From: a virus
Strand: one strand, 5' to 3'
IMG/VR virus record: IMGVR_UViG_3300031576_000023
Coordinates: 1 to 64,000 of that record
Length of the DNA: 64,000 bases
A program made the translations under genes and the position numbers. A model generated the notes under the pieces. That model made no database searches. It was not told where the DNA came from and saw nothing but the letters and a program-made list of their open reading frames with translations. Of this stretch, positions 22,933 to 46,545 are shown in pieces (the first letter of the stretch is position 1; every line of letters begins with the position of its first letter).

Positions 22933-23874
22933 ATGCGCGTCGCGGTCGTCAGCCCTTTGCCGGCAGCCCTCAAGCACGACAAGTACGCGTGGGTCGCGGA
23001 GGGCGTGCTGGACGCCGGCCACGAGTGCGAAAGGGTCCACGGGCTGCCGGCGCTTCGGCAGGCCGATAAGTCTTGCGAGTTAGTGCTGTTCTGCCAGTAC
23101 GCGGGCGGCCTCAACCCGCGCGATGTGGCGGATATCACTGCCACAAAGCGTGCTACCTGGGCGGTCTGGTGGTTCGACCTGCTGGCCGTGGACGCGTCGC
23201 GCCAGCTTGCCGAGCAGGACCATGTGCAGACCTACCTGCCGTTCCTCTCGGCGATGGATGTCGCGTTCGTCAAGGAGCGCGGCATGCTGGGCGAGTATGC
23301 GGCCCTCGGGGTTCGGGCGGCCTGGCTCGACCAGTGCTGCTGGCGCGGCATGCCGATGGCGTCTCTCTCCGAAAATCCCGAATGCGACGTGCTGGTGGCC
23401 GGGCGGAGCACGAACGAACGGCGGTGGCGCGATGTGGCGCTTCTGGTGCACGCGGGGTTCCGCGTTGCGTGGCTCGGACCATCCGGCGGGGGCCGGCTCC
23501 CGGACGGGCTAGCGGCCGTGTGGCCGTGGGTCAAGCCTGAATTGATGCCTGCCTACGCCGGCAGGTGCAAGGTCGCGCTTTCCGTGGACGCAAGGCAGGA
23601 CGTGGACGGGTACACCAGCGATCGCCTGCACTTGCTCTGCGGGATGGGCGCTACGACCCTCCACCGACGTGGCTGCTGGGCGCCAGACTGCCGGGCGTTC
23701 TTCTACCAGTCCGATGACGAGATGGTCTCGCTCTGCCGTGCTCTGTGCGACACGACTATTCAGTACCGGCGCGCGAACGCCTCCGGGACAAGGGCAGTCG
23801 AGATGGACCGCCACACCTACGGCGACCGCATCGGCGAGATCGTCGCCTGCTTGAGTGCGAGCTGCGCTACATGA
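22933..23874 (+). CDS. Glycosyltransferase, CgeB / Glyco_trans_1_2-like (GT-B)
   Basis: WWFDLL, DVLVAG, CKVALS...YTSDRLHLLCGMG, HTYGDRIGEI C-terminal motif. Confidence 0.75.
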   Translation: MRVAVVSPLPAALKHDKYAWVAEGVLDAGHECERVHGLPALRQADKSCELVLFCQYAGGLNPRDVADITATKRATWAVWWFDLLAVDASRQLAEQDHVQTYLPFLSAMDVAFVKERGMLGEYAALGVRAAWLDQCCWRGMPMASLSENPECDVLVAGRSTNERRWRDVALLVHAGFRVAWLGPSGGGRLPDGLAAVWPWVKPELMPAYAGRCKVALSVDARQDVDGYTSDRLHLLCGMGATTLHRRGCWAPDCRAFFYQSDDEMVSLCRALCDTTIQYRRANASGTRAVEMDRHTYGDRIGEIVACLSASCAT

Positions 23875-24035
23875 TAAAGCCTTCGGATGGAACGCGATGC
23901 CTCGGCTGCCACGGCGCAGGGTCGCTGAAGCTCCTCAACCGCGCCGTGTTCCTGGCGACGGGTAGGAAGAAGTACGCTGTGATGCAGTGCCCGCGCTGCG
24001 GCGGGACAGGCAAACACGGCCTCCGTGTCAAGTGA
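23871..24035 (+). CDS. DnaJ-type zinc-finger miniprotein
   Basis: CLGCHGAG ... CPRCGGTG; ATGA coupling. Confidence 0.65.
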   Translation: MIKPSDGTRCLGCHGAGSLKLLNRAVFLATGRKKYAVMQCPRCGGTGKHGLRVK

Positions 24036-24423
24036 CGGTAGTGTCCTAGGACTGTGTTGCTGCTGACGTTCGGTGCGCACGGTCCAGGCCATCAAACACC
24101 CTAGCCTGTCAGTGCATAAACATCGGAATCTCGTACCGGAAGGCACAGGATCACAACCAACGGAGAGAATCTGGTGATCGGCAAGCAACACGGAACAGAG
24201 GAAATGCAGAGTTAGAATAAAACGGCTGGTTGCGGCGCGGGAACGCTGCAACCAGCCCGGAACGATCTAAGCCTCAGAACGTCAATCCGGAGGGATGCGC
24301 CCATGTATGGACGCACACAGTCAGGGTCCGTCTTTAGTTTAGCCAGACCGCCACCATTTGCAAACGGAATCTCACCGTGCCTGCCGACTAGACGTTGGGC
24401 CGCCGACGCAGCATACTGGTGGC

Positions 24424-24669
24424 ATGCCTAAACGCTCAAGCAAGCAGAAAGACACCCAGCAGATGGCCAGAGCCATTCTAGACCAGGTAGTGCCCGATGC
24501 CGAGCCGGCCCTGCTCACGAAGCCAGAGAAGGCCAAGAATCCGGCCGCCGTCGCGCTGGGGCGGCTGGGGGGCCTCAAAGGTGGCAAGGCGCGGGCCAAG
24601 AAGTTGAGCAAGGTGAAGAGGGCAGAGATCGCGCGTAAAGCTGCTCGCGCACGCTGGAAGCCGGAGTAG
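24424..24669 (+). CDS. Small basic protein of the KNPAAVALGRLGGLKGGKARA family (often labelled histone-H1-like)
   Basis: KNPAAVALGRLGGLKGGKARAKKLS..RAEIARKAARARW. Confidence 0.8.
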   Translation: MPKRSSKQKDTQQMARAILDQVVPDAEPALLTKPEKAKNPAAVALGRLGGLKGGKARAKKLSKVKRAEIARKAARARWKPE

Positions 24670-24679
24670 GAACCGCCCC

Positions 24680-24925
24680 CTATTCGTCTTCATCGTCAAC
24701 ATCCGGCAGCGGTCCCGGATCGTACTCTGTGCCGTGCTCCATTTCAGCCAGGTCCGGCTCGTAGTTGAAACTCAACATGATCTGCGCCCCGTGCGGGTTA
24801 TTATCGTTATACGAGTCCTGGTCGATCTTCAACTGGCGATTGGCGCCCAAGATTGCTTTGCGGCGCTGCTGAAATGAACGGTGCATGAGATCGGGAATCG
24901 CGGAGCGGTCGAACCAAAGTGTCTT
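24680..24925 (-). pseudogene. Probably N-terminally truncated conserved hypothetical passenger gene
   Basis: QKTLW..HRSFQQRRKAI..QLKIDQDSYNDNN..IMLSFNYEPDLAE looks like a real protein C-terminus; upstream frame lacks a credible start or RBS. Confidence 0.45.
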
Positions 24926-24997
24926 TTGGACCAGCTTGCAAAGGCAGATCCGCTGGGGTGGGCGAGGCTTGCTCAATTCTTGAATCGTCGACGCCGC

Positions 24998-25046
24998 AGG
25001 GACTTATAAGCCCATGCGTCCGCGTTCAACTCCCGGCAGGTCCACC
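24998..25046 (+). pseudogene. Degenerate tRNA 3' half (Ile-like anticodon loop CT-TAT-AA)
   Basis: GGGA-CTTATAA-GCCC anticodon arm, CCGCG-TTCAACT-CCCGG T-arm, CAGGTCC-A-CC acceptor 3' strand; no D-arm or 5' acceptor strand. Confidence 0.4.
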
Positions 25047-25143
25047 GAACTCACCGCGCCTTGCGGCCACGGTCGTTTCGCACGCTAGTATAGCAACTCG
25101 CAGAGCGGCCAGCAACACAGAGCTAGGACACTACCCACTACAC

Positions 25144-25164
25144 GGTAGTGTCCTAATTTGAAAT
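25144..25164 (+). repeat. Third IS1-like terminal repeat, inverted relative to the cassette right end with an 8 bp spacer
   Basis: TAGGACACTACC-CACTACAC-GGTAGTGTCCTA (25124-25155), continuing ATTTGAAAT. Confidence 0.75.
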
Positions 25165-25562
25165 CCAGCAAGACGACGAAGGCCGCTGGAAGGTGAAGGA
25201 ATAGAACGGCTCGGCGACCTACGGGGGTAAGTCGCTGAGCCGCCAAGGATGAACCCCCGCTGCTGTCGTGTCGGCTGACGCCTAGGAACGCTTCCGACCT
25301 GCCAGCCTTACAAGGAGGGCCACGCTATGCGCTGGTTTCTGCCGTTCCTGTTGCCGATCATCCGGCAACGGGACGGCTCCGGTTGAAGCCGGAAGACGCT
25401 TTGCCGCAGGGCCGAAGACCTGCGGCACTTTCCTGCTTCCCCGTGCCCCCATCATAGAATTCGGTCCGATGCAGGTCAAACTGTAAGTGACGGAGGGCGG
25501 CCCGCGTCTTGCCGGTGCAGCGGCCGTGGCGGCGTGATAGAATGCACGTAGGAGGCCCTACA

Positions 25563-26282
25563 GTGGAACTGTGCATCGTGACCCCGACCAGGAACCGCTG
25601 GCGCTGGCTACGCAGCCAAGCCGAGGCGCTGGCACCGCAGCTCGCCGACGGCGACCTGTGGGTCGTAGTGGCGGACTCCTGCCCAGTCGACGTCGAGGTC
25701 ATGGACCAGGTGGCCGGGTGGCTCGGAGAGAGGATGGCCGTAGTAGAGCTGAGCTACGCCAGACGCGGTGACCGCGGCTGCGTCAACCGCGCCAGAAACG
25801 TCGGAACCCAGTTCGCAAAGAGCAACCAGTCCATTGTCGAGGTAGACGACCACGACATTGTGACGCCTGGCTGCCTCGACGCGCTCAGGGAAGCTATCGG
25901 GTGGGCGGGCTATGTGTACGGAGACTGCCACCAGGAAGCCGTTCTGCGGAGCCCAGGCGGCGACTTTCAGTTCATCGAACCCTGGCCGGACGTGACCGGA
26001 GAATACGGCTGCGGCGGAAGGGATGTCATCGGTGTGCGCGCCTTTCGCAAGCAGCTCTGGGACTCTCTAGGAGGCTGGCGAGAGGACGTGTGGCCGGGCG
26101 GCGACTGGGACTTTTTCCAGCGCGCGGCGCACGAGTTGGAAGGGGTTGACCCTGGTATTGTCCACCTAGAACAAGCGCTGTGCACGGTGCTCGTGGACGC
26201 CGACAGCATATCGGGGCACAACAGGAGCGCAGGTGAACAGGCTACTGGTGAACAGGCTACTGGTGAACCATGCCGATCGTAG
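25563..26282 (+). CDS. Glycosyltransferase family 2 (GT-A)
   Basis: LCIVTPTRNR, VVVADS, ARNVG, IVEVDDHD (DxD), YVYGD, GGW, DWDFFQR; AGGAGG with GTG start. Confidence 0.85.
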   Translation: MELCIVTPTRNRWRWLRSQAEALAPQLADGDLWVVVADSCPVDVEVMDQVAGWLGERMAVVELSYARRGDRGCVNRARNVGTQFAKSNQSIVEVDDHDIVTPGCLDALREAIGWAGYVYGDCHQEAVLRSPGGDFQFIEPWPDVTGEYGCGGRDVIGVRAFRKQLWDSLGGWREDVWPGGDWDFFQRAAHELEGVDPGIVHLEQALCTVLVDADSISGHNRSAGEQATGEQATGEPCRS

Positions 26283-27016
26283 ACATCGCCGAGGCGAAGG
26301 CCGTAGTCGGCCGGGCTACCACGATCACTGACAGGGACAGCGAGCTGATCGGCTTGCTGCTGCCGGTCGCCGAAGCGAACCTTGAGGACCACCTGGGAAT
26401 TTCTGTGGCCCAGCAAAATATCACCGAGTATTACCCGCACGATGAGGAGCATGCGATCGTCTACGACTACCAGGAAACGTTCGTGGTCCAAGGCGACAAG
26501 GTTTACATCGAGCGCGGCGAGGTGCGCGGAAGTCTGCTGCACCTGCGAAAAACTCCGGTGCGCTCCATCACCACGTTGCACGAGGACCGCGAGGGGTACT
26601 TCGGTCAAGTGGCCGGATCGTTCGCTGCGGCGACCCTGCTGGTTTCCGGGACGGACTACTACTTGGCGCTTGACGAGCCCGGCATCTCGTTCGCGGGAAA
26701 CCTGTGGCGGAGATATGCGAACTGGCCAACGCAGCTCGGCTCGATCAAGGTCGTGTACGTGGCCGGGTTCACGGCGGCAGAGCTGGCGAACAGGTACAGC
26801 GCGTTCAAGTGGGGCGCTTTGAGAACTTTCGCCGACTTGTGGAGCCGCAGCAAGGCCATGCACGGCGGGCAGCGCAGCGACCAGATGTCGAGTGAGAGCA
26901 TCGGCGGCGGGGTGTCGGCCGGGTACGTGAACGAGCACCTGCGCGGCCTGCCTGTGCCGGACGACGTGGCGGACAAGCTGGCGCGGTACGAGTCATACGA
27001 CGAGCTGGGAATCTGA
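26270..27016 (+). CDS. Head-tail connector (gp6-like)
   Basis: IVDIAEAKAVVG...DSELIGLLL..AE..LE.HLG, PVRSIT, IKVVYVAGF, SESIGG; position after capsid. Confidence 0.75.
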   Translation: MPIVDIAEAKAVVGRATTITDRDSELIGLLLPVAEANLEDHLGISVAQQNITEYYPHDEEHAIVYDYQETFVVQGDKVYIERGEVRGSLLHLRKTPVRSITTLHEDREGYFGQVAGSFAAATLLVSGTDYYLALDEPGISFAGNLWRRYANWPTQLGSIKVVYVAGFTAAELANRYSAFKWGALRTFADLWSRSKAMHGGQRSDQMSSESIGGGVSAGYVNEHLRGLPVPDDVADKLARYESYDELGI

Positions 27017-27020
27017 GCAT

Positions 27021-27374: not shown

Positions 27375-27377
27375 CGC

Positions 27378-28034
27378 ATGGCAGTTCAGTTCAGCGCCCA
27401 GGCCGGAGTCGGTGCTAAGCTGCAGATCAACCAGCAGGCGTTTCAGGCCCTCGGCAACGCCGTAAAAGAGGGCGGCGAGCAGGCGCTGAAGGACGCCGTG
27501 AAGGTCATGCGGATCGGCGCCCAGGAGCTGCGCAGGCGCGTGCAGAGGGTGTCCCCGGTCAAGGAGGGCCACATGCGCCAGAGCTGGCAGGTACACGAGA
27601 GAGCCGAGCCAGGCAAACACATCATCGACATGGGCACAAGCGTCAAGAGCAAAGAGAATTACCCGTACCCTCTGTATCTCGAGCTCGGAACTCACCTGAT
27701 CGCCGGCGGGGCCGTGATGGCCTGGCAGCCCGGCGACCCTCCGATCACGGAGTGGAAGGCCAAGCTCCAGGACATCCCCTCGTTCAAGCTCGCGGGCGAC
27801 GTGCGCGGCCGCACGGGAAAAGTCAAGGAGTTCGGCGCCGGCAAGCCAGGCAGTCCGAAGTTCGAGCGGTCCGTCAAGATCGCCACGGGGGCGTTTACCG
27901 GCGGCCAGGGCGAGCAGATGCCGATGATCCGGCCGGTGGCGTGGGAGCTGATGCCCGTGGTCCTCCAGGGGATGATAGAGGCCGCACAGAAGGGGCTTAA
28001 GACGTGGATGGAAGGCAAGAAGTTCGGTAAGTAA
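27378..28034 (+). CDS. HK97 gp10-like tail completion protein
   Basis: SPVKEGHMRQSW, YPLYLELGT, PMIRP. Confidence 0.8.
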   Translation: MAVQFSAQAGVGAKLQINQQAFQALGNAVKEGGEQALKDAVKVMRIGAQELRRRVQRVSPVKEGHMRQSWQVHERAEPGKHIIDMGTSVKSKENYPYPLYLELGTHLIAGGAVMAWQPGDPPITEWKAKLQDIPSFKLAGDVRGRTGKVKEFGAGKPGSPKFERSVKIATGAFTGGQGEQMPMIRPVAWELMPVVLQGMIEAAQKGLKTWMEGKKFGK

Positions 28035-28054
28035 GAATTAAGAGGACTGGCGGC

Positions 28055-28549: not shown

Positions 28550-28560
28550 GGAGAATATCA

Positions 28561-30091: not shown

Positions 30092-30092
30092 C

Positions 30093-30470: not shown

Positions 30471-30486
30471 CAGACACCAGGTCTTT

Positions 30487-33264: not shown

Positions 33265-33282
33265 GGTGAAACGGAGAACCAC

Positions 33283-33492: not shown

Positions 33493-33512
33493 GGGAGACT
33501 AAGGAGACGACG

Positions 33513-34007: not shown

Positions 34008-34038
34008 CGAAAAGGCAACTGAAAGGCTAGCGATAACG

Positions 34039-36767: not shown

Positions 36768-36776
36768 GTTGGCAAC

Positions 36777-37451
36777 ATGGCCTGCCTCCCGCTGATCCCT
36801 GACGCGACGCCTTGGCACGGGCCGCTACAAGGCGGAGGCAGTGTTTCTACGCCGGAGTTGGACTTCGGATTCATGGTATTCGGCCAGGCTGCTGGCCAAG
36901 CGATCTCTGGGACTTCTGATGTCAAGATTCTTTTCCTGGGCGTGATGGGGCGAAATATAAGCTTCGTCACAAACGGAATACAGGTTACGAACGCTGGGTA
37001 CTGGCTCGTCATGGCGCGCGCGGATGTATTTGGAACTGATGTGACTTCATGCACGATGTGGATTTACAAGAACGGATTCAGGTTTGCCGCTAACGGCTAC
37101 ACAACCATCCAGTTTAATGCTACGTCGCCGGGATACGCCACGATCTGCGTCATGCAGGTGATGAACCTAGCCGCCAACGACAAGGTACACATCTATCTGC
37201 AATACAGCACCAACAACGTCAATCACGCGATGCGAGAAGGTGCAACGTTCGCCATCGCGCGACTGGCGACCAATGCAACGGTGTTCGGTAGCGGCGGCAG
37301 TGGTGGCGGCTCGAACCCTCCGTCAACCGGCGGCTCTGGAACCGGCGGCCCGACTCCGTCAGCGCCGTCGCCGACCGGCAGCCCGGATGTCGCACGGTTC
37401 GGCAGCGGCACGAGCGGCGCCGGCGGCGGGCCAGGACACGCCAGGGGCTAG
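36777..37451 (+). CDS. C1q/TNF-like jelly-roll tail fibre / receptor-binding protein
   Basis: IQVTNAGYWLV, IYKNG, MNLAANDKVHIY, TFAIARL; G/S/P-rich tail. Confidence 0.6.
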   Translation: MACLPLIPDATPWHGPLQGGGSVSTPELDFGFMVFGQAAGQAISGTSDVKILFLGVMGRNISFVTNGIQVTNAGYWLVMARADVFGTDVTSCTMWIYKNGFRFAANGYTTIQFNATSPGYATICVMQVMNLAANDKVHIYLQYSTNNVNHAMREGATFAIARLATNATVFGSGGSGGGSNPPSTGGSGTGGPTPSAPSPTGSPDVARFGSGTSGAGGGPGHARG

Positions 37452-37498
37452 GCAAGCATGAGACTTTTCGAGTAACCTTCCACACGGAGATAGCTCAC

Positions 37499-37951
37499 AT
37501 GGCTGGAATCTTTTGGTCCGCGCAGACCGCCGAGATCACGACCGGCACAACAGTCAAGACGCTCTTGCAGGTAGCGTCAGGAGCGGCCGTCAACCTGATG
37601 GTCAAGGAGATTATCTGCTCGTTCAAGGGCACGGTGAACACCGACGCGCCAATCCTCGTCGAGGTTCTCAAGCAGACGGGCGCCGGAACCATGTCTGCCC
37701 TGACAGTGCGCAAGATCAACAATAACGCGGCGTCGCTCTCCATGACGGCGCTGCACACTGCAACCATTGAACCAGTCGACGGCGGCGTTGTCCTGGACAG
37801 ACAAGAGGTCCATCCGCAAGGCGGCAGGTACTACTGGGTGCCTCCCAACAACTGCCCTGGCCTGGAGGTCGAAGCCGGTGCCAGGCTTGGCCTGCGCGTG
37901 ACGGCCGCAGTCTCCGTCTCCGCGCTCGCCTCCATGAAGGGCGAGGAGTAA
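37499..37951 (+). CDS. Hypothetical virion protein
   Basis: GGAG RBS; KTLLQV..EIICSFKG..PILVEV..ARLGLRV..EE. Confidence 0.65.
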   Translation: MAGIFWSAQTAEITTGTTVKTLLQVASGAAVNLMVKEIICSFKGTVNTDAPILVEVLKQTGAGTMSALTVRKINNNAASLSMTALHTATIEPVDGGVVLDRQEVHPQGGRYYWVPPNNCPGLEVEAGARLGLRVTAAVSVSALASMKGEE

Positions 37952-37959
37952 CAGCAACA

Positions 37960-38154
37960 ATGACGACATGGCAAGCGCTCTCCGACCGCCTGGACTCCGG
38001 CGATACCCAAGCTGCCGCGCTCGTGACCGAGACGGTCCTGAAAGCCCTGGCCGAGCTGTTCGTCGCGGACTTCTCCTCCTGGCAGGAGTTCAGCCGCCTC
38101 GTCAACAAGTCCTGGAGTCTCGGTCGCGTCTGCACGGAGTGCGACGAGGAGTGA
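37960..38154 (+). CDS. Small hypothetical protein
   Basis: GAGGAG upstream; protein-like composition. Confidence 0.45.
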   Translation: MTTWQALSDRLDSGDTQAAALVTETVLKALAELFVADFSSWQEFSRLVNKSWSLGRVCTECDEE

Positions 38155-38165
38155 GGGCCGGCTGA

Positions 38166-38300
38166 GTCAAGTACCGCCGGCTGAAGCCGGCGGCTTGTAA
38201 GTAGTCTCAGCCGCAATCCCGGAGTAGTCCAGTTTTGGCTTCATCGACCCCTACCATTGGTGCCTTGACAGACGCCTTGGCCCGGATGTTCCGGGCCGCG
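38166..38300 (-). ncRNA. Predicted TnpB omegaRNA scaffold (5' limit uncertain); guide taken from flank starting at 38165
   Basis: Known TnpB architecture: omegaRNA overlaps tnpB 3' end and the right-end hairpin; predicted guide UCAGCCGGCCCUCACU... Confidence 0.55.
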
Positions 38301-39313
38301 TTAAAATCGGCGTTCGTGGAGTAACCACAGTGCTTGCAGACAAACTCGGACTGAGATTTTCGATTGGCCTTCTCGCAATGCCCGCACTTCGAACAGGTGC
38401 GAGACGTATTGCGGGGGTCAACCGTCGGGACCTGGATGCCGGCCAGTGCTGCCTTGTACTCCACGAACGCACGAAGTTGAAAGAATGCCCAACTACCGAG
38501 GCGATTCCGCTGCCGGCGTTTAACCGTAACCCGATCCTTGATGCCTTTGAGGTTTTCAAGGGCGATCGCGGAATCGGTTGCCTTGGCCTTCACAACGAGT
38601 CGCTTGCTGATGCGGTGGTTGGTGTCGCGGCGGAAGTTAGCTTCTCGCTTTCGAATCTTGCAGAGTCTTCGCCGGGCACTCTTGGTCCCGGTGCGATTGA
38701 GCTCTGCCCGGCGCCGAGCATAGCGCTTTCTGAGCTTCTCAACCCCTTCCCCGGAGAATACTTCCCCGGTCGAATCGGTAGCGAGATTCACGACGCCCAG
38801 GTCAATGCCAAGCACGTTAGTCGGTTCGATCATGGCGCCCTCGGGCATCTCGATTGTGCAGAGCAGGTAGAACTTGCCCTGGCGGAAGACAAGATCCGCT
38901 TGCCCTTTGATCCGCCCTTGGCGCTCTTTCTGGTATGCACCGCAGACGAATGGGATCAGGAGTCGGCCGGACAAAGCCCACAGGCTGACGGTGGTCAACC
39001 CTTTGAAGCTCAAGACCCGTTGGTCATAGCAGATAGCCGCGCGCGCCTTGAAGACGGGGCACTTCGTCTTGTCCCTCTGGAAGCACTCGACTGCCTTGGC
39101 GATTGCTCTGACCGCCATCTGGCTCGACAACCGAAACTGCTCACGGATCTTCCGATAACAGAGACGATGGAGCGTCACCTGCCCGAAGATTTTGGCCTCG
39201 AATCCGACCTTGGCTGCGTAAGTGGAAGCGGCATTGAACCGCTCTATCGTGGCCAGGAGATCGGCTTTCTGCCCAGTAGTTGGAAGCAGTTGGAGCTGAA
39301 GAGTCAGTTTCAT
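38207..39313 (-). CDS. tnpB: RNA-guided endonuclease TnpB
   Basis: MKLTLQLQLLPT start; RuvC D (GIDLG), E (IALENL), D (NADFNAARNI) all intact; Zn finger CSKC...CKHC. Confidence 0.95.
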   Translation of the reverse strand: MKLTLQLQLLPTTGQKADLLATIERFNAASTYAAKVGFEAKIFGQVTLHRLCYRKIREQFRLSSQMAVRAIAKAVECFQRDKTKCPVFKARAAICYDQRVLSFKGLTTVSLWALSGRLLIPFVCGAYQKERQGRIKGQADLVFRQGKFYLLCTIEMPEGAMIEPTNVLGIDLGVVNLATDSTGEVFSGEGVEKLRKRYARRRAELNRTGTKSARRRLCKIRKREANFRRDTNHRISKRLVVKAKATDSAIALENLKGIKDRVTVKRRQRNRLGSWAFFQLRAFVEYKAALAGIQVPTVDPRNTSRTCSKCGHCEKANRKSQSEFVCKHCGYSTNADFNAARNIRAKASVKAPMVGVDEAKTGLLRDCG

Positions 39314-39403
39314 ACGTGTACTGTAACCGGATTTAATCTCACAAGCAAGAGGAGCGGCAATTCCTCCATCGCCTGAAGGCGATGGTCTCCTTGCCGAAAC
39401 TCC

Positions 39404-40318
39404 ATGAAGGTCCTGTACCTGGGCAGCTTCGACTTCGACTGGAACACCGAGTCGTATGTCGCCAGGGCCTTCGAGCGGCTTGGCCACGAAGTCCGCAGGC
39501 TCAACGAGGCGGACACGAACGAGCACCAGCTCGGCATGGCCATACGCGAGACCCAGCCGGCCTTGTTTCTATTTGCGAAGGGCCGGCTGAACGGAAACTT
39601 CGATCCGGCCGTATCCGGTGTCAGGCAGGCCCTGCACGACGTGCGCGGCCTGTGCAGGAACGTCTGCTGCTGGGTGTTCGACCTGCTGGCGCACGAGTAC
39701 AGCCGGCAGCGCTGGACCTGGGCCAGGTCGGTGAACGAGCTGGTAGACACGTTCTTTGTGACCGACGGCTACTCGGCCACGAAGCTAAGCCGGGCCGTGG
39801 TGCTGAGGCAGGGCGTGCCTGACGACTACAGGACCGGGATGCGGCGCCCGGAGTGGATAGCCCCTGTAGCGTTCCTGGGCGGCGCGTACGGCGAGAGAAA
39901 GCCGCTCTTGGACTTGGTTGCCACGGAGGTCAAAAACCGCCTAGGAACGCCGCTATTGCACGTACAGACCGTCCGTGGGGCCGACCTGTCCGACATGATG
40001 GCCTCTGTCGGGTGCGTTTTTGGCCCGCACTGGCCAGCTTACCCATCTTACGGCTCGAACCGTGCCTATGTCGTGGCAGGGTACGGCGGCTGTTTTGTCT
40101 GCCCAGTAGCCGACTGGATGACCGAGGAGGGCTGGGTGGCAGGCGAGCACTACAGGCCGTACGACCCTGGCAACCGGTGGGACGCCGTCGAGCAAGTCCT
40201 CGTAGCCGTAGGGGACCGTGAGGGCTCCGCGGCGATCGCGGCCCGTGCCGCCAAGTTCGCGCGCAGCTCGTTCTCATACGACCGGCGCGTCCAGCAGCTT
40301 GTGGACAACCTCAAATGA
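39404..40318 (+). CDS. Glycosyltransferase, CgeB / Glyco_trans_1_2-like
   Basis: MKVLYLG..TESYVARAFERLGHEV, WVFDL, VAFLG, YGSNRAY..AGYGG, FSYDRRVQQL. Confidence 0.82.
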   Translation: MKVLYLGSFDFDWNTESYVARAFERLGHEVRRLNEADTNEHQLGMAIRETQPALFLFAKGRLNGNFDPAVSGVRQALHDVRGLCRNVCCWVFDLLAHEYSRQRWTWARSVNELVDTFFVTDGYSATKLSRAVVLRQGVPDDYRTGMRRPEWIAPVAFLGGAYGERKPLLDLVATEVKNRLGTPLLHVQTVRGADLSDMMASVGCVFGPHWPAYPSYGSNRAYVVAGYGGCFVCPVADWMTEEGWVAGEHYRPYDPGNRWDAVEQVLVAVGDREGSAAIAARAAKFARSSFSYDRRVQQLVDNLK

Positions 40319-40662
40319 CTCAAAGTCTCGAAACGGAAAACTGGTTTATCGAGCATTCAATCTCCATCGAGCACGGAAGGCTTCTCTACAGGCTCGCGCC
40401 TGGCGGAACGGCCGAGATCGTGGACATCATGGTCACTGGCGAGCACCGCCGAGAGGGGTTCGGCAGGGCCATGTTCGAGCGCCTGCTGCGCGAGCTGCCG
40501 GACTCCGTGCGGACGGTGTATGCCTTTGTGCGCTGCGGCAACGGGATCGCCTGCGACTGGTACTGGGCGCTGGGGTTCGCGGACTGGCCGGTCCCTGGGT
40601 TCTACGGAGACGACGATGGGCTCGTCATGGTGTATAAGAGGCTGCCGGAGGACGGGCCATGA
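40315..40662 (+). CDS. GNAT-family acetyltransferase
   Basis: EIVDIMVTGEHRREGFGRAM (acetyl-CoA motif A), V..GN..A..WY.ALGF. Confidence 0.85.
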   Translation: MTQSLETENWFIEHSISIEHGRLLYRLAPGGTAEIVDIMVTGEHRREGFGRAMFERLLRELPDSVRTVYAFVRCGNGIACDWYWALGFADWPVPGFYGDDDGLVMVYKRLPEDGP

Positions 40663-41363
40663 ACGTCTGCGCCTTCACTAGCGTCTGTGAGGAGGACGCC
40701 TGCTGGTTGCCGCAGTACCTCGCGGAGGCCGAGCGGATCGGCATTCAGTTCGTCATGCACCTTGACCGCTGCTCGCGCGAGACAGCGCGTATCGTCGAGT
40801 CCCACCGCCTCTTGGCGGGAATCACGCGGCAGGACAATCACGCCAAGCAGTTCTCCGAGACGGACAAGCAAGCTGCCCTCGATGTCGTCGTGTCATCTGG
40901 CTGCCGCTGGGCGCTCGCGTGGGACGTGGACGAGACGTACGCGCAAGACGCGCGCCGGCACCTGGAGAATCTTGGGAACTACTTCGCAGACCTCTTGCAG
41001 GTCCGCATGGTCAATCTCTGGGGCGATGACCTGCACGCCAGGGTTGACGGCCCGTTCTCATCCGCGTGGCGGTGCAAGCTTTACCGGATCGGCGCCGGTA
41101 ACTCGTGGGCGTTCAGGCATCCGCTCGTCAACGGCGCCGTGGACCTCAGCGGCCGACACGCCAACGGTACGGAGCAGAGAACCGGCCTCGTCTGCCTGCA
41201 CCACGGGTTTAAGACGCAGACGCTGAGGCTGGCGCATCGCGAGCGGTGGAACAGTATTTATGGCGCGGCCTTCGGCTATAATCCGTACGGAACGTGGGAC
41301 TGGGTCTGCGACGAGACAATCGCGCCCACCGTCAGGGAACTAGTCGAGGAACTTGCGTGCTGA
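40659..41363 (+). CDS. Glycosyltransferase family 2-like
   Basis: EEDACWLPQYL, HLDRCS, WALAWDVDE (DxD), CLHHGF. Confidence 0.75.
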   Translation: MNVCAFTSVCEEDACWLPQYLAEAERIGIQFVMHLDRCSRETARIVESHRLLAGITRQDNHAKQFSETDKQAALDVVVSSGCRWALAWDVDETYAQDARRHLENLGNYFADLLQVRMVNLWGDDLHARVDGPFSSAWRCKLYRIGAGNSWAFRHPLVNGAVDLSGRHANGTEQRTGLVCLHHGFKTQTLRLAHRERWNSIYGAAFGYNPYGTWDWVCDETIAPTVRELVEELAC

Positions 41364-41881
41364 GCGACCCCGCAACACTGGAATACTGGGATGCGCGCAC
41401 CAAGGCGCACGGCGGCGGCGCTCCGCGCGAGCTGTACTTCAAGAGCGAGGCGTGGGCCAGGTACGACCGAAACGTGCTGGCGTTCATCGCCCGCTTCGTG
41501 CGCCGCGGGGTCCGCGTGCTCGATCTCGGGTGCGGTTTCGGGCTGTACGGGCCACACGTCGAGGCAGCGCGAGGCTCGTGGACCGGAGTTGACTTCTGCG
41601 CCGGCATGCGGGACTTATGGCGCACAAGGGGCGGCATGGTCGGCCGGTTCGTGCAAGCTGACGTGCGGGACGTGGCGGAGCTGCTGAATCTCACCTGGAA
41701 GCATGACGTGGTAATGCTCGGCTGCATTCGCAGAATCCTCGGGCTGAGCCCGGAGGATATGCGCGACAAGTACCTGCCGCTAGTGGCGAACGGGGGCGTG
41801 CTGGCCAACGTCGAGGCCAGCGAGTGCCACGTGTGGGACCAGGACGGTGCGCCGGTCCAATGGAGCATACCAGGAGCCTGA
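41357..41881 (+). CDS. Class I SAM-dependent methyltransferase
   Basis: YWDAR, RVLDLGCGFG, WTGVDF, FVQADV; GAGG with GTG start. Confidence 0.85.
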   Translation: MLSDPATLEYWDARTKAHGGGAPRELYFKSEAWARYDRNVLAFIARFVRRGVRVLDLGCGFGLYGPHVEAARGSWTGVDFCAGMRDLWRTRGGMVGRFVQADVRDVAELLNLTWKHDVVMLGCIRRILGLSPEDMRDKYLPLVANGGVLANVEASECHVWDQDGAPVQWSIPGA

Positions 41882-41884
41882 CCA

Positions 41885-42934
41885 ATGAACGCGATGCTGC
41901 AAGTAGCTGACTGCGGGCCACTGGAAAGCCTGGCGACGATGTTCCGCGCGATCGGATGGGATTGCTTCGTGCCAGACGCGGGCTTGCGGGCGCGGCTCGT
42001 GGCGGCCGGCTGCGACACAGTCCTGGACCCGGAGTTTCTGTTCAGAGAGATGGGCTACGACCGTCCGCGCGGCGTCCAGCAAAGCGGAGACCTCGACAGC
42101 ATGGACCTGTACGTTGATGTCAAGGCGCAGCGCAACGCGGAAAAAGCCTGGAAGCTTCACCGGCGCTTCGAGGGTCGCACAATCTGGTATCGCATCAACG
42201 GCGGTCTGCCTGAAATAACTCCTCAAGGCGGGGACGAGCTGAACTTCAACTTTCCGATTATCACGCCGAACAGGTACTATCTCGACAGTCCCACGGCATA
42301 CAAGAACCACGTCGGCTCTCGGCGGGATGCGAACTGGGGTGGACTGGCCTACGTCATGTGGCCCCCTTTCGCGCGCGCCTCTGATTATTCTGTGCGCGCC
42401 CCGAATTACGACGGGTACTGCAATCCAGTCTGCTTGATCCACAACGTCACTGGCTGGGGGTACTCCGACCTCGTCGAGCCGCTTCGCCGAGAGGCCAGGC
42501 TGCTGTGCTTCGGGTCGCACGGCAGCCCGGACGGGCTTATCCCGCACAGCGGCGTCCCCGGACTTCTGGCCGCGGCGCTGTGCATGGTCCACCTCAAGAG
42601 CAACGACTGCCCAGGATACGCCCTCTACGAGGCCCTGCATGCCGGCTGCCCGCTGATCGTTCCGCGCAGACTGATAAAGCGCATGCGGATGGCAGACCTG
42701 CTGGTGGAAGGCGCGACGTGCCTCTGCTTCGACATCGAGGGAGATGAGCGCGGGTGCGGCGCCCTCGACGTCGCGGCCTGCGTCGCCGAGGTCCGCGCTG
42801 CCACCAAGCAACTCATGGACTCGGCAGAGAACGAGCGAATCGGGAATGCCGGGAAGCGCGCGCTGGCCGAGCTGATATGGAATCCAGAGCGCGACGCAGA
42901 GTCGTTCAAGGCGTTTTTGCGCAGATACGGTTGA
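41885..42934 (+). CDS. Glycosyltransferase (GT-B, GT4-like)
   Basis: VHLKSNDCPGYALYEALHAGCPLIV, LVEGATCL, ENERIGNAG. Confidence 0.7.
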   Translation: MNAMLQVADCGPLESLATMFRAIGWDCFVPDAGLRARLVAAGCDTVLDPEFLFREMGYDRPRGVQQSGDLDSMDLYVDVKAQRNAEKAWKLHRRFEGRTIWYRINGGLPEITPQGGDELNFNFPIITPNRYYLDSPTAYKNHVGSRRDANWGGLAYVMWPPFARASDYSVRAPNYDGYCNPVCLIHNVTGWGYSDLVEPLRREARLLCFGSHGSPDGLIPHSGVPGLLAAALCMVHLKSNDCPGYALYEALHAGCPLIVPRRLIKRMRMADLLVEGATCLCFDIEGDERGCGALDVAACVAEVRAATKQLMDSAENERIGNAGKRALAELIWNPERDAESFKAFLRRYG

Positions 42935-42949
42935 TCCGGTGTACCGCTC

Positions 42950-43510
42950 ATGACCAGTTTCGAGGAAACCTGGAGCCTCCTGCCTGGGAACGGCTGGCTC
43001 GACCGCGACGAGGCCGAACTGCTATGGAACGCCGTCAAGCTCGAAGATGACGTGCTTGAGGCCGGGGTGTACTGGGGCAGGTCGGCCGTGCTGCTGGCGC
43101 ACCGGCTCGCGGAGGGTTCCGGCAAGTTCTGGCTCTGCGACCCGTTCATCGACGGCCACCACTTCGACACGCTGGCCGAGGGAGCGGTGGCGTGGCAGTG
43201 CGTCCTGGCAACTGTCGAGGACATCCTGCCGGCGGAGCGGCTCTGCCTCGTGCCGTGCTCCGAGAGCGATCTGCACGTCTTGGCTGCCGGGACCCTGCGG
43301 CCGGGCCTGGTTTACCTTGACGCAGACCACTCCTACGAGGCGACGAGCGCCGCGCTGGCTAGGTGGTCGCCGCTCGCTGGGGCCGTGGCGGCGCACGACT
43401 ACGCCGGGACCGGTGGCGGGGCCGAGGTCAAGCGCGCCGTTGACGAACTGCCTGGCTGGAGGATCAAACAGCGAGCGTCGCGGATGGTCGTGCTTGAAAG
43501 ACACGCATGA
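42950..43510 (+). CDS. Methyltransferase (Methyltransf_24-like, sugar O-methyltransferase type)
   Basis: GWLDRDEA, VLEAGVYWGRS, VYLDADHSYEA, AHDY, VKRAVDE. Confidence 0.85.
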   Translation: MTSFEETWSLLPGNGWLDRDEAELLWNAVKLEDDVLEAGVYWGRSAVLLAHRLAEGSGKFWLCDPFIDGHHFDTLAEGAVAWQCVLATVEDILPAERLCLVPCSESDLHVLAAGTLRPGLVYLDADHSYEATSAALARWSPLAGAVAAHDYAGTGGGAEVKRAVDELPGWRIKQRASRMVVLERHA

Positions 43511-44457
43511 GCAAGCGCGCGCTGATCACCGGCGTCTCCGGCCAGGACGGCTCGTACCTCGCCGAGTACCTGCTGGGGCTTGAGTACGAGGTCTACGGGC
43601 TCGTGCGGCCGCGCGCGTGCGCGACCAACCACAACCTCGCGGAATGCCGCAAGCACACGGGCTTCTGCGAGCTGGAAGGAGACCTACTCGACCAGCCGTC
43701 TCTGGACGCGGCAGTCCAGGGCGCGCGACCGCACGAAGTGTACAACCTCGCCGGCCACACCTTCGTGGGCAGTAGCTGGGACAGCCCGGAGCACGTTTTC
43801 CAGGTCAACGCCCTCGGCACGCTGCGAATGCTGCAGGCGGTCCAGCGGCACGCGCCGTCCGCGCGGTTCTACCAGGCCAGCACCTCCGAGATGTTTGGAA
43901 ACCAGCCGGCGCCGCAGAGCGAGGCCACGCCGTTCGTGCCGTGCAGCCCCTATGGAATCGCCAAGCTGGCAGCACACTGGTTCACGGTAGAGTTTCGCTC
44001 CCGAGGTCTGTGGGCCTGCTGCGGAATCGCGTTCAACCACGAGTCTGCGCGGCGCGGCGGCCAGTTTGTGACCGGCAAGCTAGCCAGCCACGCGGCGTTC
44101 AAGCAGGCCACCAACAGCAGCCAGAAGCTCCAGGTCGGCAACCTGCACGCCAGGCGGGACTGGGGCCACGCGCGCGACTATGTGCGAGCCATGCACGCGA
44201 TGATGCAGGCCAATGCGCCCACCGACTACGTCATCGGTACGGGAAGGTCGCTCTCCGTCTTGGAGTTCGCGGAACTCGTTGGCCTCGGTACTGACGACCT
44301 TGAAGTCACTAGCAAGCACATGCGCCCGACCGACATCGCCGAGCTCCGAGCCGACGCCAGCAAGATCAAGGCGGCGGTCGGCTGGTCGCCCAGCGTCGCC
44401 GTGGAGCAGCTCGCCGCCGAGATGCTTCGGCATCACGCCGACTGCTGGAAGCGATGA
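43507..44457 (+). CDS. gmd: GDP-mannose 4,6-dehydratase
   Basis: ALITGVSGQDGSYLAE, YNLAG, YQASTSEMFG, SPYGIAK, FNHES, FVTGK, GNL.ARRDWGHARDYV. Confidence 0.96.
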   Translation: MSKRALITGVSGQDGSYLAEYLLGLEYEVYGLVRPRACATNHNLAECRKHTGFCELEGDLLDQPSLDAAVQGARPHEVYNLAGHTFVGSSWDSPEHVFQVNALGTLRMLQAVQRHAPSARFYQASTSEMFGNQPAPQSEATPFVPCSPYGIAKLAAHWFTVEFRSRGLWACCGIAFNHESARRGGQFVTGKLASHAAFKQATNSSQKLQVGNLHARRDWGHARDYVRAMHAMMQANAPTDYVIGTGRSLSVLEFAELVGLGTDDLEVTSKHMRPTDIAELRADASKIKAAVGWSPSVAVEQLAAEMLRHHADCWKR

Positions 44458-45440
44458 AACTGGCCGTGCTCGGACGCGCCGACCCGACCGGCCTGGGCGC
44501 TATGACCGACGACTTCTGCCGCGCCATGGACCCCGATCTCGCCCTCGTCGTGGACTACTCCACCAGAGGCAAGACTGATCCAGGGCTGGTCCCCGGCAGC
44601 ATTGTACTGCCCCAGACTGAGCTTCGGTTCAGCGACTTCTGGGCCGAGATGCTGGCCGGCTACGACGCTCTCGTGGGCTTTGAGACGTTCTACGACGAGG
44701 CCGTCCTGCGCGGCGCCAAGCTGGCGGGATGCAAGACGATCCTGTTTCCGATGTGGGAGTGTACGCAGCCGTGGTGCGACGCCGCAGATGTGATGGTCTG
44801 CCTGAGCCCAGCCGACGAGGCGAGGTATCCGCGCGGGATCCCGATGCGGTGGGCCGTGGACCCCAGGCGGTTCCAGCCTCGCACTGACATATGTTGGCCG
44901 CCGAAACTGATCCAGCACAATGCCGGCACGCTCGGCCTGAACGGGAGGAACGGGACGGAGGAGTTCTTGCAGGCGGCCAGGTATCTCTCTGGAACTGGCG
45001 TCGCGGTGCTCGTGCGCGCACAGGAGCAGATTCCAACGGAGTGGCGGACGCCCGACGCCTACTATGCGGGCATGGTGGACCAGCGGGAGGACTTGTGGAG
45101 GGAGATGGACCTGTTCGTCTTTCCTCTGAAGATTCCTGGCCTTGCGTTGCCGCTAATCGAGGCCGCTGCCGTCGGCATCCCGACTCTGATCGTCGATATC
45201 GCTGAGCGACGCGACTACCACGCGGACTTTCGAGTCCCAATCGGCCGGACGTACCGCTGTCGGATCGGCGGTAACGAGGTCGAGTACCGCGCCGCGGACG
45301 TAGAGGCCCTGGGTAGGCGGATGCGGTCCATGGCGCTCGGGAACGTCCGCGTGCGAGTCCCGCCACATCCTCCGACGTGGCACAAGTTCAAGACACGGTG
45401 GCAGAACACCGTCACGCCACTGATCGGAAGAACGCCGTGA
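44454..45440 (+). CDS. Glycosyltransferase (GT-B, GT4-like)
   Basis: RADPTGLG, FETFY, PMWE, HNAG..RNGT, DLFVFP..GLALPLIEAAAVGIP. Confidence 0.78.
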   Translation: MKLAVLGRADPTGLGAMTDDFCRAMDPDLALVVDYSTRGKTDPGLVPGSIVLPQTELRFSDFWAEMLAGYDALVGFETFYDEAVLRGAKLAGCKTILFPMWECTQPWCDAADVMVCLSPADEARYPRGIPMRWAVDPRRFQPRTDICWPPKLIQHNAGTLGLNGRNGTEEFLQAARYLSGTGVAVLVRAQEQIPTEWRTPDAYYAGMVDQREDLWREMDLFVFPLKIPGLALPLIEAAAVGIPTLIVDIAERRDYHADFRVPIGRTYRCRIGGNEVEYRAADVEALGRRMRSMALGNVRVRVPPHPPTWHKFKTRWQNTVTPLIGRTP

Positions 45441-46545
45441 TGACCTCGCACACGTAGTCAACCGCCCCATCCTCTAGCATCCCCTGGTACAGCGGCAGGT
45501 ATAAGCCGCGCGCAGATAGGTCGTCGGCGACGGGATAGTCGCACTCGCATGCGTAATGACGCAGGTGGTTCTGCCTGTGCATCGGCACGAAGTAGGTCCG
45601 TGTCTCAATCCCGTGGTGCGCCAGCTCGCTCCGCAGGTCGTCGCGCCAGAACGGCGCGTCGCGAGTCACCAGTAGCGGGAAGACCCACCAGACGCTTCCA
45701 GCAGGACGCGAGGGGAACTCGATCCAGCGCGTATGGCGTAGGTTGTCTCGATACGCGGCGGCGATCATCTCGCGCTCACTCAAGATCGCGCTAAGGCGCT
45801 TCGTCTGTGAGTAGCCGAGCGCAGCCTGCATGGCCGTCATGCGGTAGCCGTAGGCCAACTCAGTATGTCGAAAATGCTCGTCATTGCTGAAGGCGTGCGC
45901 TTGCAGTTTTCGCAGCCATATGGCACTTTCCAGGTCGCGACACACCACCATTCCGCCTTCGCCAGTGGTGATGATTTTGTTCCCGTAGAAACTGTACGTT
46001 GCCAGGCTGCATGTTGCCAGGTCGCGAAGCCCTGCCGTTGCGCCGTGCGCCTCGGAGTTGTCCAGGATCAACGGGCATCCTTGCGCATTCGCCACGACAG
46101 TAGCCTCGTCTGCCGGAACACCGTATAGCGCTACCGGCATGACGGCCGCTGGCCTATGCTCGCGAATCAGTTTGTCGAGCACCTTCGGGTCCATGTTGCC
46201 CGTTGCCGGCTCGCTGTCGCAAAATACAGGGATCGCCCCGCAGTAAAGCACGGCGTTGGCGCAGGCCACCATCGTTAGCACTGGCAGTATTACCCTGTCG
46301 CCAGGCCGGACCAACGCCGCTCGCAAGGCCAGATGCAGTGCTGTGGTTCCGCTGTTGCAGGCTACGCCGTGGGCATAACCGCTGGCCGCGGCGAACGCTC
46401 GCTCGAACTGTTCGACGTATGGACCGCCGCTGACCCAACCGTCCTTTAGGCACGCGGCAACGGCCTGCCTATCGTTAGCCGTGATCTTCGGCCTGGCGAC
46501 TGGTACGTACTTCTCAGCGCTAATGTTGACGATCGGGTCAGGCAT
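45412..46545 (-). CDS. per: GDP-perosamine synthase-like PLP aminotransferase (DegT/DnrJ/EryC1/StrS)
   Basis: GWVSGGPYVEQFE, NSGTTALHLAL, SEAHGA, SFYGNKIITTGEGG (PLP lysine), YRMTAMQAALG, GIETR..F.PMH.Q, GLYLP. Confidence 0.9.
   Translation of the reverse strand: MPDPIVNISAEKYVPVARPKITANDRQAVAACLKDGWVSGGPYVEQFERAFAAASGYAHGVACNSGTTALHLALRAALVRPGDRVILPVLTMVACANAVLYCGAIPVFCDSEPATGNMDPKVLDKLIREHRPAAVMPVALYGVPADEATVVANAQGCPLILDNSEAHGATAGLRDLATCSLATYSFYGNKIITTGEGGMVVCRDLESAIWLRKLQAHAFSNDEHFRHTELAYGYRMTAMQAALGYSQTKRLSAILSEREMIAAAYRDNLRHTRWIEFPSRPAGSVWWVFPLLVTRDAPFWRDDLRSELAHHGIETRTYFVPMHRQNHLRHYACECDYPVADDLSARGLYLPLYQGMLEDGAVDYVCEVITAFFRSVA

Follow-up and report, generated by a model that had tools for sequence, protein, structure and literature searches.

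To our knowledge, virion glycosylation by phage-encoded enzymes has been demonstrated experimentally only in a few mycobacteriophages, where it has been reported to shield the particles from antibody binding. In mycobacteriophage Corndog, gp35–gp38, a methyltransferase and three glycosyltransferases (GTs), are encoded directly upstream of the capsid gene, and their other neighbour is gp34, probably the portal gene, although its record gives no function; in Che8, three GTs are located at the right end of the genome. These enzymes are reported to modify the capsid and the tail tube (PMC11600133, PMC12363180). Here, we analyse a 64,000-base stretch of DNA (hereafter, the window), comprising the first 64,000 bases of the 85,328-bp phage record IMGVR_UViG_3300031576_000023, which has an IMG/VR completeness rating of 100%. 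The window carries two GT genes between the capsid and the head–tail adaptor genes and, past the tail genes, a cassette of genes for a predicted nucleotide-sugar pathway, methyltransferases, an acetyltransferase, and further GTs.

By analogy with Corndog and Che8, we propose that soluble enzymes of this phage build a perosamine-containing, methylated glycan on virion proteins, and we estimate the probability of this reading at about 0.5. Such phage-encoded, cytoplasmic glycosylation would proceed in two tiers. The first would comprise a GT-B enzyme and a GT2-like enzyme encoded between the capsid gene and the head–tail adaptor gene and inherited with the capsid gene. In the second, encoded at the end of the late gene block, a GDP-mannose 4,6-dehydratase (Gmd) and an aminotransferase would convert host GDP-mannose to a GDP-4-amino-4,6-dideoxyhexose, most likely GDP-perosamine; two S-adenosylmethionine (SAM)-dependent methyltransferases and perhaps a small GNAT would tailor the product, and four further soluble GTs would lengthen the glycan. 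The acceptor would most likely be one or several proteins of the virion (capsid, tail tube, or fibres), to which the enzymes would add sugars in the cytoplasm, either before assembly or in its course, and the outcome would be a sugar coat on the particle, as in the two mycobacteriophages. All genes that a first-pass annotation of the window had named are present at the coordinates it gave (Table 1).

Table 1. Features of the window and of the adjoining part of the phage genome. In the text, genes are denoted by their first coordinate. ORF, open reading frame; aa, amino acids.
Feature	Position	Strand	Evidence and remarks
C5-cytosine methyltransferase	121–1239	+	PF00145 1.2e-51
Portal	10688–12859	+	Late block
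MuF protein with ADP-ribosyltransferase domain	12859–16332	+	Late block
Prohead protease fused to AAA ATPase	16895–20200	+	Late block
Major capsid protein, HK97 fold in residues 254–529, long N-terminal extension	20230–21831	+	PF05065 2.6e-25; 35 homologues
Conserved head-module ORF between capsid gene and GT	22439–22921	+	tblastn: same position in L007, L016, L019, L020, L053–L056, G001
Capsid-linked GT-B glycosyltransferase, Glyco_trans_1_2 family	22933–23874	+	PF13524 5.2e-6, 26.9 vs. 25-bit cut-off
54-aa double CxxCxGxG zinc-ribbon mini-protein	23871–24035	+	PF00684 DnaJ_CXXCXGXG 5e-4, below cut-off; start overlaps GT_22933 stop by 4 bases
Second head-module GT, GT2-like, marginal	25563–26282	+	PF00535 7.9e-5, 23.1 vs. 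23.3 bits
Head–tail adaptor, end point of head-module GT pair	26270–27016	+	phrog_442 1.1e-11; syntenic in L055 at 44%
Neck proteins	between head–tail adaptor and tape measure	+	Late block
Tape measure	30487–33264	+	Late block
Distal tail proteins	to ~38154	+	Late block
IS605-type TnpB (Cas12f1-like TNB domain)	38207–39313	-	PF07282 7.2e-24, OrfB_IS605 PF01385 3.6e-14
First cassette GT	39404–40318	+	GT-family match 23.6 vs. 25 bits, below cut-off
Short GNAT acetyltransferase	40315–40662	+	PF00583 1.3e-6
GT-A (GT2-like) glycosyltransferase	40659–41363	+	No Pfam match; ESM Atlas feature score 0.97, TM 0.80–0.84 to GT2 clusters
SAM methyltransferase, start codon uncertain	41294–41881	+	PF13649 4e-6, PF08241 8e-5
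Putative GT, weak	41885–42934	+	PF13524 9e-4, 19.6 vs. 25 bits
Methyltransf_24 methyltransferase (Pfam family of TylF-type sugar O-methyltransferases)	42950–43510	+	PF13578 7.9e-6
GDP-mannose 4,6-dehydratase (Gmd)	43507–44457	+	PF16363 2.4e-94
GT-B type glycosyltransferase (group 1)	44454–45440	+	PF13692 2.5e-6, 28.3 vs. 27-bit cut-off
Perosamine-synthetase-like pyridoxal phosphate aminotransferase	45412–46545	-	PF01041 7.5e-89
TET/JBP dioxygenase	62930–64045		PF12851 1.7e-24; directly before GT_64042
GT-B, 380 aa	64042–65187		Model pLDDT 88; directly after TET
Short-chain dehydrogenase/reductase (SDR) epimerase	65142–66206		After GT_64042

The window resembles the mycobacteriophage systems in several respects. 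Soluble GTs are accompanied in both by a methyltransferase of the TylF/Methyltransf_24 type, a family common to Corndog gp35, Che8 gp108, gene 42950 of the window, and the relatives G001 and G039 (G000 is the genome of the window, G001–G008 and G039–G042 are the records of its relatives, and L numbers are capsid loci; most of the relatives' records are fragments or incomplete metagenome-assembled genomes (MAGs)). The Corndog GT genes lie within the structural block, as do the two head-module GTs of the window, and GT-A type enzymes occur in both systems. Unlike Corndog and Che8, the phage studied here has Glyco_trans_1_2 GT-B enzymes, its own Gmd–aminotransferase branch, and a GNAT; its host would be a planctomycete rather than an actinobacterium, and its system is known from genes alone. 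Giant viruses offer a further parallel, since chlorovirus PBCV-1, with its Gmd, and mimivirus, with its amino-sugar pathways, synthesise their own nucleotide sugars and use cytoplasmic GTs to place methylated sugars on the capsid. The likeness is one of description, and these viruses have eukaryotic hosts and capsids unrelated to that of the window phage. A capsid GT of PBCV-1 is mentioned in a preprint on phage DNA glycosylation (bioRxiv 10.1101/2023.12.21.572611).

The first tier rests on GT_22933, the product of gene 22933. AlphaFold2 predicted a GT-B fold for this protein (pLDDT 94.6), which was supported by Foldseek, and the best PDB matches of the model were GtfC/Gtf3, with modest TM-scores (TMq 0.62–0.69); we take these to be cytoplasmic enzymes extending O-glycans on serine-rich adhesins. 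The GT_22933 family is small, with 16 proteins found at 31–48% identity, two of them named from Pirellulales, and PDB profile searches with the two GT alignments gave nothing useful. The major capsid protein is a candidate acceptor of the glycan, and 47% of its residues 289–318 are Ser or Thr.

When IMG/VR was scanned with single proteins, the capsid protein retrieved no relative and the aminotransferase a single distant locus; an alignment of 19 capsid homologues retrieved 39 IMG/VR loci. Among the 33 of them with at least 1.5 kb of downstream sequence, tblastn detected a GT_22933 homologue directly after the capsid gene in five (L007, L011/L012, and L014/L015, representing three distinct phages). 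A smaller capsid alignment searched against GTDB genomes identified four loci, all in Pirellulales MAGs, and three of these also have the GT directly after the capsid gene. The link of the GTs to the virion module is thus stronger than could be known from the first-pass annotation. Since all four GTDB loci and one named protein among the 35 capsid homologues come from Pirellulales MAGs, this lineage of Planctomycetota most likely includes the host of the phage. In L055, located in a 415-kb Pirellulales contig, the order of the capsid gene, 22439 homologue, GT, GT2, adaptor, neck, and tail genes is kept. Homologues of the second head-module GT, 25563, come after the first one in L053 (43% identity) and L055 (37–46%), and a different GT2 protein of 556 aa occupies this position in L007.

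The identity of the GTs to GT_22933 (32–42%) tracks that of the capsid proteins (33–42%), with capsid and GT values of 40% and 42% for L007, 42% and 36% for L053, 42% and 39% for L054, 41% and 36% for L055, 34% and 36% for L015, and 33% and 32% for L012. On a quick capsid tree of 28 rows, the GT follows the capsid gene in two clades of relatives, and two changes suffice to explain its distribution, while none of 500 label shuffles required as few. The tree omits L044, which is partial, and L009, L011, L014, L018, L022, L023, L025, L031, L033, L035, L038, L040, L042, L043, and L045, which are duplicates or have short flanks; L008 and L017, labelled unknown, were treated as non-carriers. Because relatedness alone makes clustering likely, the tree shows vertical inheritance of the GT with the capsid gene, and not function.

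The sugar branch of the second tier is formed by two enzymes whose assignment by the first-pass annotation proved correct, with the aligned catalytic motifs intact. Gmd matches PF16363 over the full profile (residues 6–306 to profile positions 1–332 of 332) as well as PDB chains 1n7g (5e-75) and 1rpn (4e-73), and its motifs GVSGQDGSYL, ASTSEMFG, SPYGIAKL, and FNHES align with those of both chains; these are presumably the nucleotide-binding glycine motif, the catalytic Thr/Glu, and the Tyr-x-x-x-Lys motif. The three best PDB matches of the aminotransferase are the perosamine synthetases 3bn1, 3dr4, and 3dr7 (~1e-66), followed by the next chain at 1.2e-44. Its segment YSFYGNKIITTGEGGM aligns with FSFFGNKIITTGEGGM of 3bn1, including the lysine of the GNK motif, which we assume to be the Schiff-base lysine. 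The protein reaches no NCBIfam equivalog (LegC, 245 vs. 420 bits; PseC, 234 vs. 423.5 bits). The location of Gmd one gene away is only suggestive for GDP-4-keto-6-deoxymannose as the predicted substrate of the aminotransferase. The same two enzyme families constitute the GDP-perosamine pathway of O-antigens (Gmd and Per, as represented by the Caulobacter crescentus perosamine synthetase, PDB 3bn1/3dr4), but, in contrast to O-antigen loci, the window genome lacks genes for a lipid carrier, polymerase, or export. It is likely that the phage makes a GDP-amino-dideoxyhexose. The best match of the aminotransferase in 61 Pirellulales genomes has 53% identity, in a MAG also holding a related phage locus, and the others have 42% or less; therefore, the gene does not appear to be a recent capture from the sampled hosts.

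The other cassette proteins are supported to different degrees. A Pfam scan assigned a family to 10 of 12 proteins at E<=0.01, including five of the six GT candidates, two of which (22933 and 44454) reach the Pfam gathering score. Of the six GTs proposed by the first-pass annotation, four (22933, 39404, 40659, and 44454) can be regarded as well supported by their sequences and models, while 25563 and 41885 are weak. GT 39404 is a distant full-length paralogue of GT_22933 (hhalign probability 92.5%, E 4.9e-7, 274 columns) and the prophage-like relative in G039 encodes a homologue of it (40% identity) past the tail genes; for 41885, hhalign gave no match to the GT_22933 family. Pfam confirmed the GNAT and both methyltransferases, and a phmmer search with methyltransferase 42950 found nothing useful. 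N-acetylation of the sugar, in turn, became doubtful and is the most weakly supported step of the earlier scheme, because the GNAT is only 115 aa long and the named proteins closest to it are protein N-acetyltransferases of the RimI type (TIGR01575 6e-7; PDB 5isv 1.3e-5). Both an amino sugar and a protein N-terminus are candidate substrates. The PerB/WbdR acetyltransferases, unlike this short GNAT, are of the left-handed beta-helix type.

The genes from 39404 to 45440 form the tightly coupled run that had been noted before, with 4-base overlaps at 40315/40318, 40659/40662, 43507/43510, and 44454/44457, and the aminotransferase gene converges on the last GT gene with an overlap of 29 bases. In a promoter and terminator scan of positions 36500–48500, the sites were no commoner than in shuffled sequence.

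Relatives carry other versions of the cassette. In G001, the only complete relative with a capsid-linked GT (92,947 bp), the tail genes are followed by genes of a GT2, a GT1, a helicase-like protein, a DNA methylase, a methyltransferase, Gmd (40% identity), and a dCMP deaminase, and then of a DegT aminotransferase (30% identity), a sulfotransferase, a Methyltransf_24 enzyme, two GT1s, a radical SAM enzyme, and two further Glyco_trans_1_2 proteins. This cassette (L047/L048, ~11000–37500) extends over about 26 kb and contains at least seven matches to Glyco_trans_1_2. At the post-tail position, the prophage-like relative in G039 carries other genes. Among their products are a protein of 1279 aa that combines methyltransferase and GT9 (heptosyltransferase-family) domains, a fusion of a PfkB kinase and a cytidylyltransferase-like domain, presumably the architecture of the heptose-activating HldE, a TylF-type O-methyltransferase, and a 51-residue fragment resembling the aminotransferase of the window. 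In five near-complete genomes (G000, G001, and G006–G008), PF13524-family GTs were found only in G000 and G001, both complete, which also encode Gmd and DegT and have many GTs past the tail genes; no GT of this family, the only one searched there, was detected in G006 and G007, and G008 has Gmd without the capsid-linked GT.

The prophage-like relative occupies ~207800–242000 of G039 contig 26 (L055/L057), and the matches to its terminase, capsid, and tail genes are broken up over different frames, either because of decay or because of long-read indel errors.

The first-pass annotation had regarded a tailed phage with such a pathway as notable, a view weakened by the gene content of other phages: 84 GenBank phage records, mostly of cyanophages, contain a Gmd homologue, and 80 contain a DegT homologue. 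A comparable cassette is present in Synechococcus phage ACG-2014f, where gp219–231 are annotated as two nucleotide-sugar epimerases, an aminotransferase, a GT, a methyltransferase, a GT, a sulfotransferase, and another GT; it is close to a tail fibre gene, and cyanomyovirus sugar cassettes are also found in S-SKS1 and S-CAM7. The first epimerase, gp219, is a Gmd homologue with 41% identity to that of the window; the aminotransferase is only 26% identical, so that the product may be another amino or deoxy sugar. The remaining proteins of the ACG-2014f cassette have no blastp match in that of the window, and blastp comparisons of the cassette of the window with those of G001, G039, and ACG-2014f revealed only the homologous pairs named here. 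Unlike the window, ACG-2014f carries its cassette among auxiliary metabolic genes and has no capsid-linked GT. A literature search, which left subscription journals mostly uncovered, found no paper giving a function to such cassettes or tying perosamine to phage particles. Since cyanophages already carry Gmd–aminotransferase–GT–methyltransferase cassettes, the gene content alone is not new. The new elements are a family of capsid-linked GT-B enzymes that is inherited together with the capsid gene in planctomycete phages, a sugar cassette that is exchangeable, and the coexistence of these with a separate DNA-glycosylation locus. A near-identity search of the cassette DNA against GenBank phages found no near match, and the capsid protein and GT_22933 had no tblastn match among these phages.

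Several observations weigh against glycosylation of virion proteins. While the enzyme families, their solubility, their synteny, and their co-inheritance with the capsid gene are shown by the analysis, the acceptor is inferred, as are the identity of the sugar and the sequence of the reactions. The C-terminus of the capsid protein is not Ser/Thr-rich, and relatives with the GT have only slightly more Ser and Thr in the capsid stretch (0.24–0.40, 7 rows) than those without it (0.14–0.35, 21 rows), a comparison confounded by relatedness. GT-B is a generic fold; T4 alpha-glucosyltransferase is also among the matches of the GT_22933 model (rank 49, TMq 0.66), and because of this and of the modest TM-scores the likeness to GtfC/Gtf3 is only a hint. 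Gmd misses the NCBIfam equivalog cut-off of TIGR01472 (303.3 vs. 415 bits); since this is nevertheless by far its best NCBIfam family, the next scoring 94.5 bits, it is best regarded as a divergent, short-form member. Neither the GTs nor any other cassette protein of the window shows significant similarity to Corndog gp36–38 or Che8 gp108–110 (best blastp E 0.029). The cassette has the post-tail position reported in the first-pass annotation, but it does not follow the tail genes directly, since the minus-strand TnpB gene lies between; on its other side it borders DNA-metabolism genes, the aminotransferase gene being the end of a minus-strand run that includes RusA and a helicase. The cassette of G001 is interspersed with genes for a DNA methylase, a helicase-like protein, and a dCMP deaminase, and methyltransferase 42950 also matches a PHROG labelled 'DNA methyltransferase' (2.9e-9). 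Finally, the absence from relatives of the TET dioxygenase considered below is weak evidence, as most of their records are fragments or incomplete MAGs.

A role in remodelling of the host envelope is unlikely. The soluble GTs and the GDP-amino-sugar branch would, in this case, act at the cytoplasmic face on host lipid-linked or other glycoconjugate intermediates, rely on a host initiating transferase and exporter, and alter the lipopolysaccharide or some other glycan of the cell surface, for instance in lysogens or as a means of superinfection exclusion. The phage lineage can be temperate, since L055 sits in a Pirellulales contig and G002 is classed as a provirus. The main known setting of perosamine is the O-antigen, DegT homologues (E<=1e-40) occur in 35 of the 61 sampled Pirellulales genomes, so that hosts may have related substrates or exporters, and comparable cyanophage cassettes are found among auxiliary metabolic genes. 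However, among the 548 ORFs of at least 60 aa in six frames of the whole 85,328-bp genome, none has four or more hydrophobic 19-mers, which bears out the earlier observation that flippase, Wzy, and GtrAB-type membrane genes are missing. Two or three such 19-mers were found in ten ORFs, nine of which are antisense within larger plus-strand ORFs, and no cassette protein, including the GTs, has a convincing membrane segment. The polytopic GtrA/GtrB/GtrC, Wzx, and Wzy proteins and the acetyltransferase required for lysogenic O-antigen conversion of the Gtr/Wzy type were not found among these ORFs, nor was a phosphoglycosyl-transferase-like membrane protein. Moreover, the genes are located in and at the end of the late structural block rather than beside an integrase, no integrase domain was detected among the ORFs scanned, and co-inheritance of the head-module GT with the capsid gene would be unexpected for a lysogenic-conversion moron.

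Modification of DNA was the alternative offered by the first-pass annotation, which had pointed to TET-generated hydroxymethyl bases. Phage clusters for glycosylation of 5-hydroxymethylcytosine (5hmC), reportedly described by Burke in 2021, consist of a C5-methyltransferase, a TET-type dioxygenase, and a GT. The window genome is similar to them in having a C5-cytosine methyltransferase, a genuine TET/JBP dioxygenase, a GT-B adjacent to it, and an epimerase. Among the best PDB matches of the GT_64042 model are BshA and DNA-bound T4 alpha-glucosyltransferase, the latter with the top TM-score (0.67). In the preprint by Pyle et al. (bioRxiv 10.1101/2023.12.21.572611), BshA, MshA, and T4 beta-GT appear as look-alikes of DNA GTs, and a 'GT plus epimerase' beside a dioxygenase is one of the layouts. 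Given this correspondence of the C5-methyltransferase, TET, T4-alpha-glucosyltransferase-like GT-B, and epimerase genes, DNA glycosylation probably occurs in the phage via this dedicated locus, 16.4 kb from the cassette. A protein with a glutamine amidotransferase domain (67701–68582) is encoded a little past the epimerase.

It is quite unlikely that the cassette itself extends a glycan on 5hmC, producing a perosamine-containing, methylated oligosaccharide that blocks restriction. Precedents for such a function are available: according to the same preprint, phage clusters with several GTs put mono- to trisaccharides, including heptose, on 5hmC, and some of them have their own sugar-activating enzymes or lie near structural genes (bioRxiv 10.1101/2023.12.21.572611), and phage-made UDP-arabinose for DNA polyarabinosylation is described in another paper (PMC13326640). 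The DNA methylase and dCMP deaminase within the G001 cassette and the PHROG match of methyltransferase 42950 would also fit. On the other hand, the TET gene has its own neighbours, GT_64042 followed by the SDR epimerase, and starts (62930) 16.4 kb past the end of the cassette (46545). Unlike the genes of 5hmC clusters, neither the perosamine cassette nor the head-module GT pair lies beside the dioxygenase, and relatives have them without TET: in a search of G000 (the positive control), G001–G008, and G039–G042, many of them incomplete records, TET was found only in G000, being absent from all six GT-bearing relatives (G001–G003, G039, G040, and G042), including G001, which is complete and has a cassette of the same kind. 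A search of five genomes (G000, G001, and G006–G008) for ThyA homologues found none, and hhalign indicated that the TET-adjacent and capsid-linked GT families are unrelated. This explanation is weakened only, because records are incomplete and the G001 cassette holds the dCMP deaminase and DNA methylase.

Finally, it is improbable that the head-module GT pair alone acts on virion proteins, using host nucleotide sugars, and that the cassette is an unrelated exchangeable island with another target. Cassette content does vary among relatives sharing the head-module GTs (perosamine-type genes in the window; Gmd, DegT, sulfotransferase, and radical SAM genes in G001; a kinase/nucleotidyltransferase gene, a GT9 domain, and a TylF-type methyltransferase in G039), a TnpB element borders the cassette in the window, and in G008 Gmd occurs although the head-module GT is missing. 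However, 39404, the first GT of the cassette, is a paralogue of the capsid-linked one and is conserved in the post-tail region of G039, and a cassette is present in both complete GT-bearing genomes, while the complete G006 and G007 lack GTs of the PF13524 family, the only one searched.

Glycosylation of virion proteins, which we prefer, may tentatively be combined with the DNA-modification locus into a broader and, as a whole, rather doubtful scheme. In this clade of Pirellulales phages, the capsid-linked GT, with a GT2 partner in some, would start the glycan; an exchangeable post-tail cassette, similar to a viral O-antigen locus, would add a phage-specific rare sugar, of the perosamine type here and of the heptose type or sulfated in relatives; and the separate set of C5-methyltransferase, TET, GT, and epimerase would glycosylate DNA, so that both the particle and the genome would be shielded. 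If virion proteins are indeed the target, this glycosylation strategy also exists in the distant phylum Planctomycetota, with unrelated GTs and a rare sugar made by the phage. The exchange of glycan supply genes among relatives in which the capsid-linked GT stays would then point to selection on the appearance of the particle surface, and the presence of both a DNA-glycosylation and a probable protein-glycosylation set in one genome would provide a natural test case for assigning GTs to DNA or protein acceptors. Were the target DNA or host lipopolysaccharide instead, the cassette would still be an unusual sugar pathway for either role.

The genes surrounding the head-module GTs are of several kinds. 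The conserved ORF 22439, preceding GT_22933, is a weak paralogue of the neck/tail-completion protein 27378–28034 (blastp 4e-4). A mini-ORF similar to the zinc-ribbon one at 23871 also follows the GT in L015 and L012, and was not found in L055, L053, or L007. The 1.5-kb stretch 24036–25560, which separates the two head-module GTs and corresponds to ~500 bases in L055, has the appearance of a moron or small mobile unit that was inserted there. It contains two small ORFs, one of them coding for a basic protein of 81 aa (24424–24669, plus strand) and the other for a 98-aa protein (24680–24976, minus strand) with a homologue elsewhere in G039. The 13-mer ggtagtgtcctag is present at 24037–24049, and a near-perfect hairpin of the same word at 25123–25155. 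Directly past the capsid gene, a 185-aa ORF is located on the opposite strand (21859–22416); its product has a hydrophobic N-terminal stretch and no Pfam match at E<=1, and its DGDT motif resembles, by eye and presumably, that of staphylococcal nuclease. The overlapping plus-strand ORF 21886–22425 is probably spurious, given its third-position GC of 0.66 vs. 0.78 for the minus-strand ORF and its biased translation. Likewise, the plus-strand ORF 38330–39376, which is atypical in its codon-position GC and has a low recognition value in the Atlas, is a probable antisense shadow of TnpB, whose stretch has a lower G+C content (0.60).

The genome has a G+C content of ~62%, and its plus strand carries an ordinary late block. 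The record has a terminal repeat of 127 bases, which could be an assembler overlap from a circular contig. The MuF-like head protein 12859–16332 is 1157 aa long and has a C-terminal ADP-ribosyltransferase exoenzyme domain (PF03496, 3.8e-11), the MuF part being kept in relatives. The 1101-aa product of 16895–20200 combines a prohead serine protease (PF04586) with an AAA ATPase (PF00004), and in relatives these parts are found either together or as two separate tblastn pieces. Among the unusual auxiliary genes are those for a sulfatase (2488–3783; PF00884, 7e-40), which fits a planctomycete host, and for a di-haem cytochrome c peroxidase (60051–61130; PF03150, 7e-54); relatives encode a sulfotransferase (G001) and an FGE-sulfatase-domain protein (G039). 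Beyond the window, far from the tail block, positions 79535–81493 of the genome encode a protein of 652 aa that contains G8 and right-handed beta-helix domains (PF24606, 1.2e-15) and is a candidate for a tail spike or glycan depolymerase.

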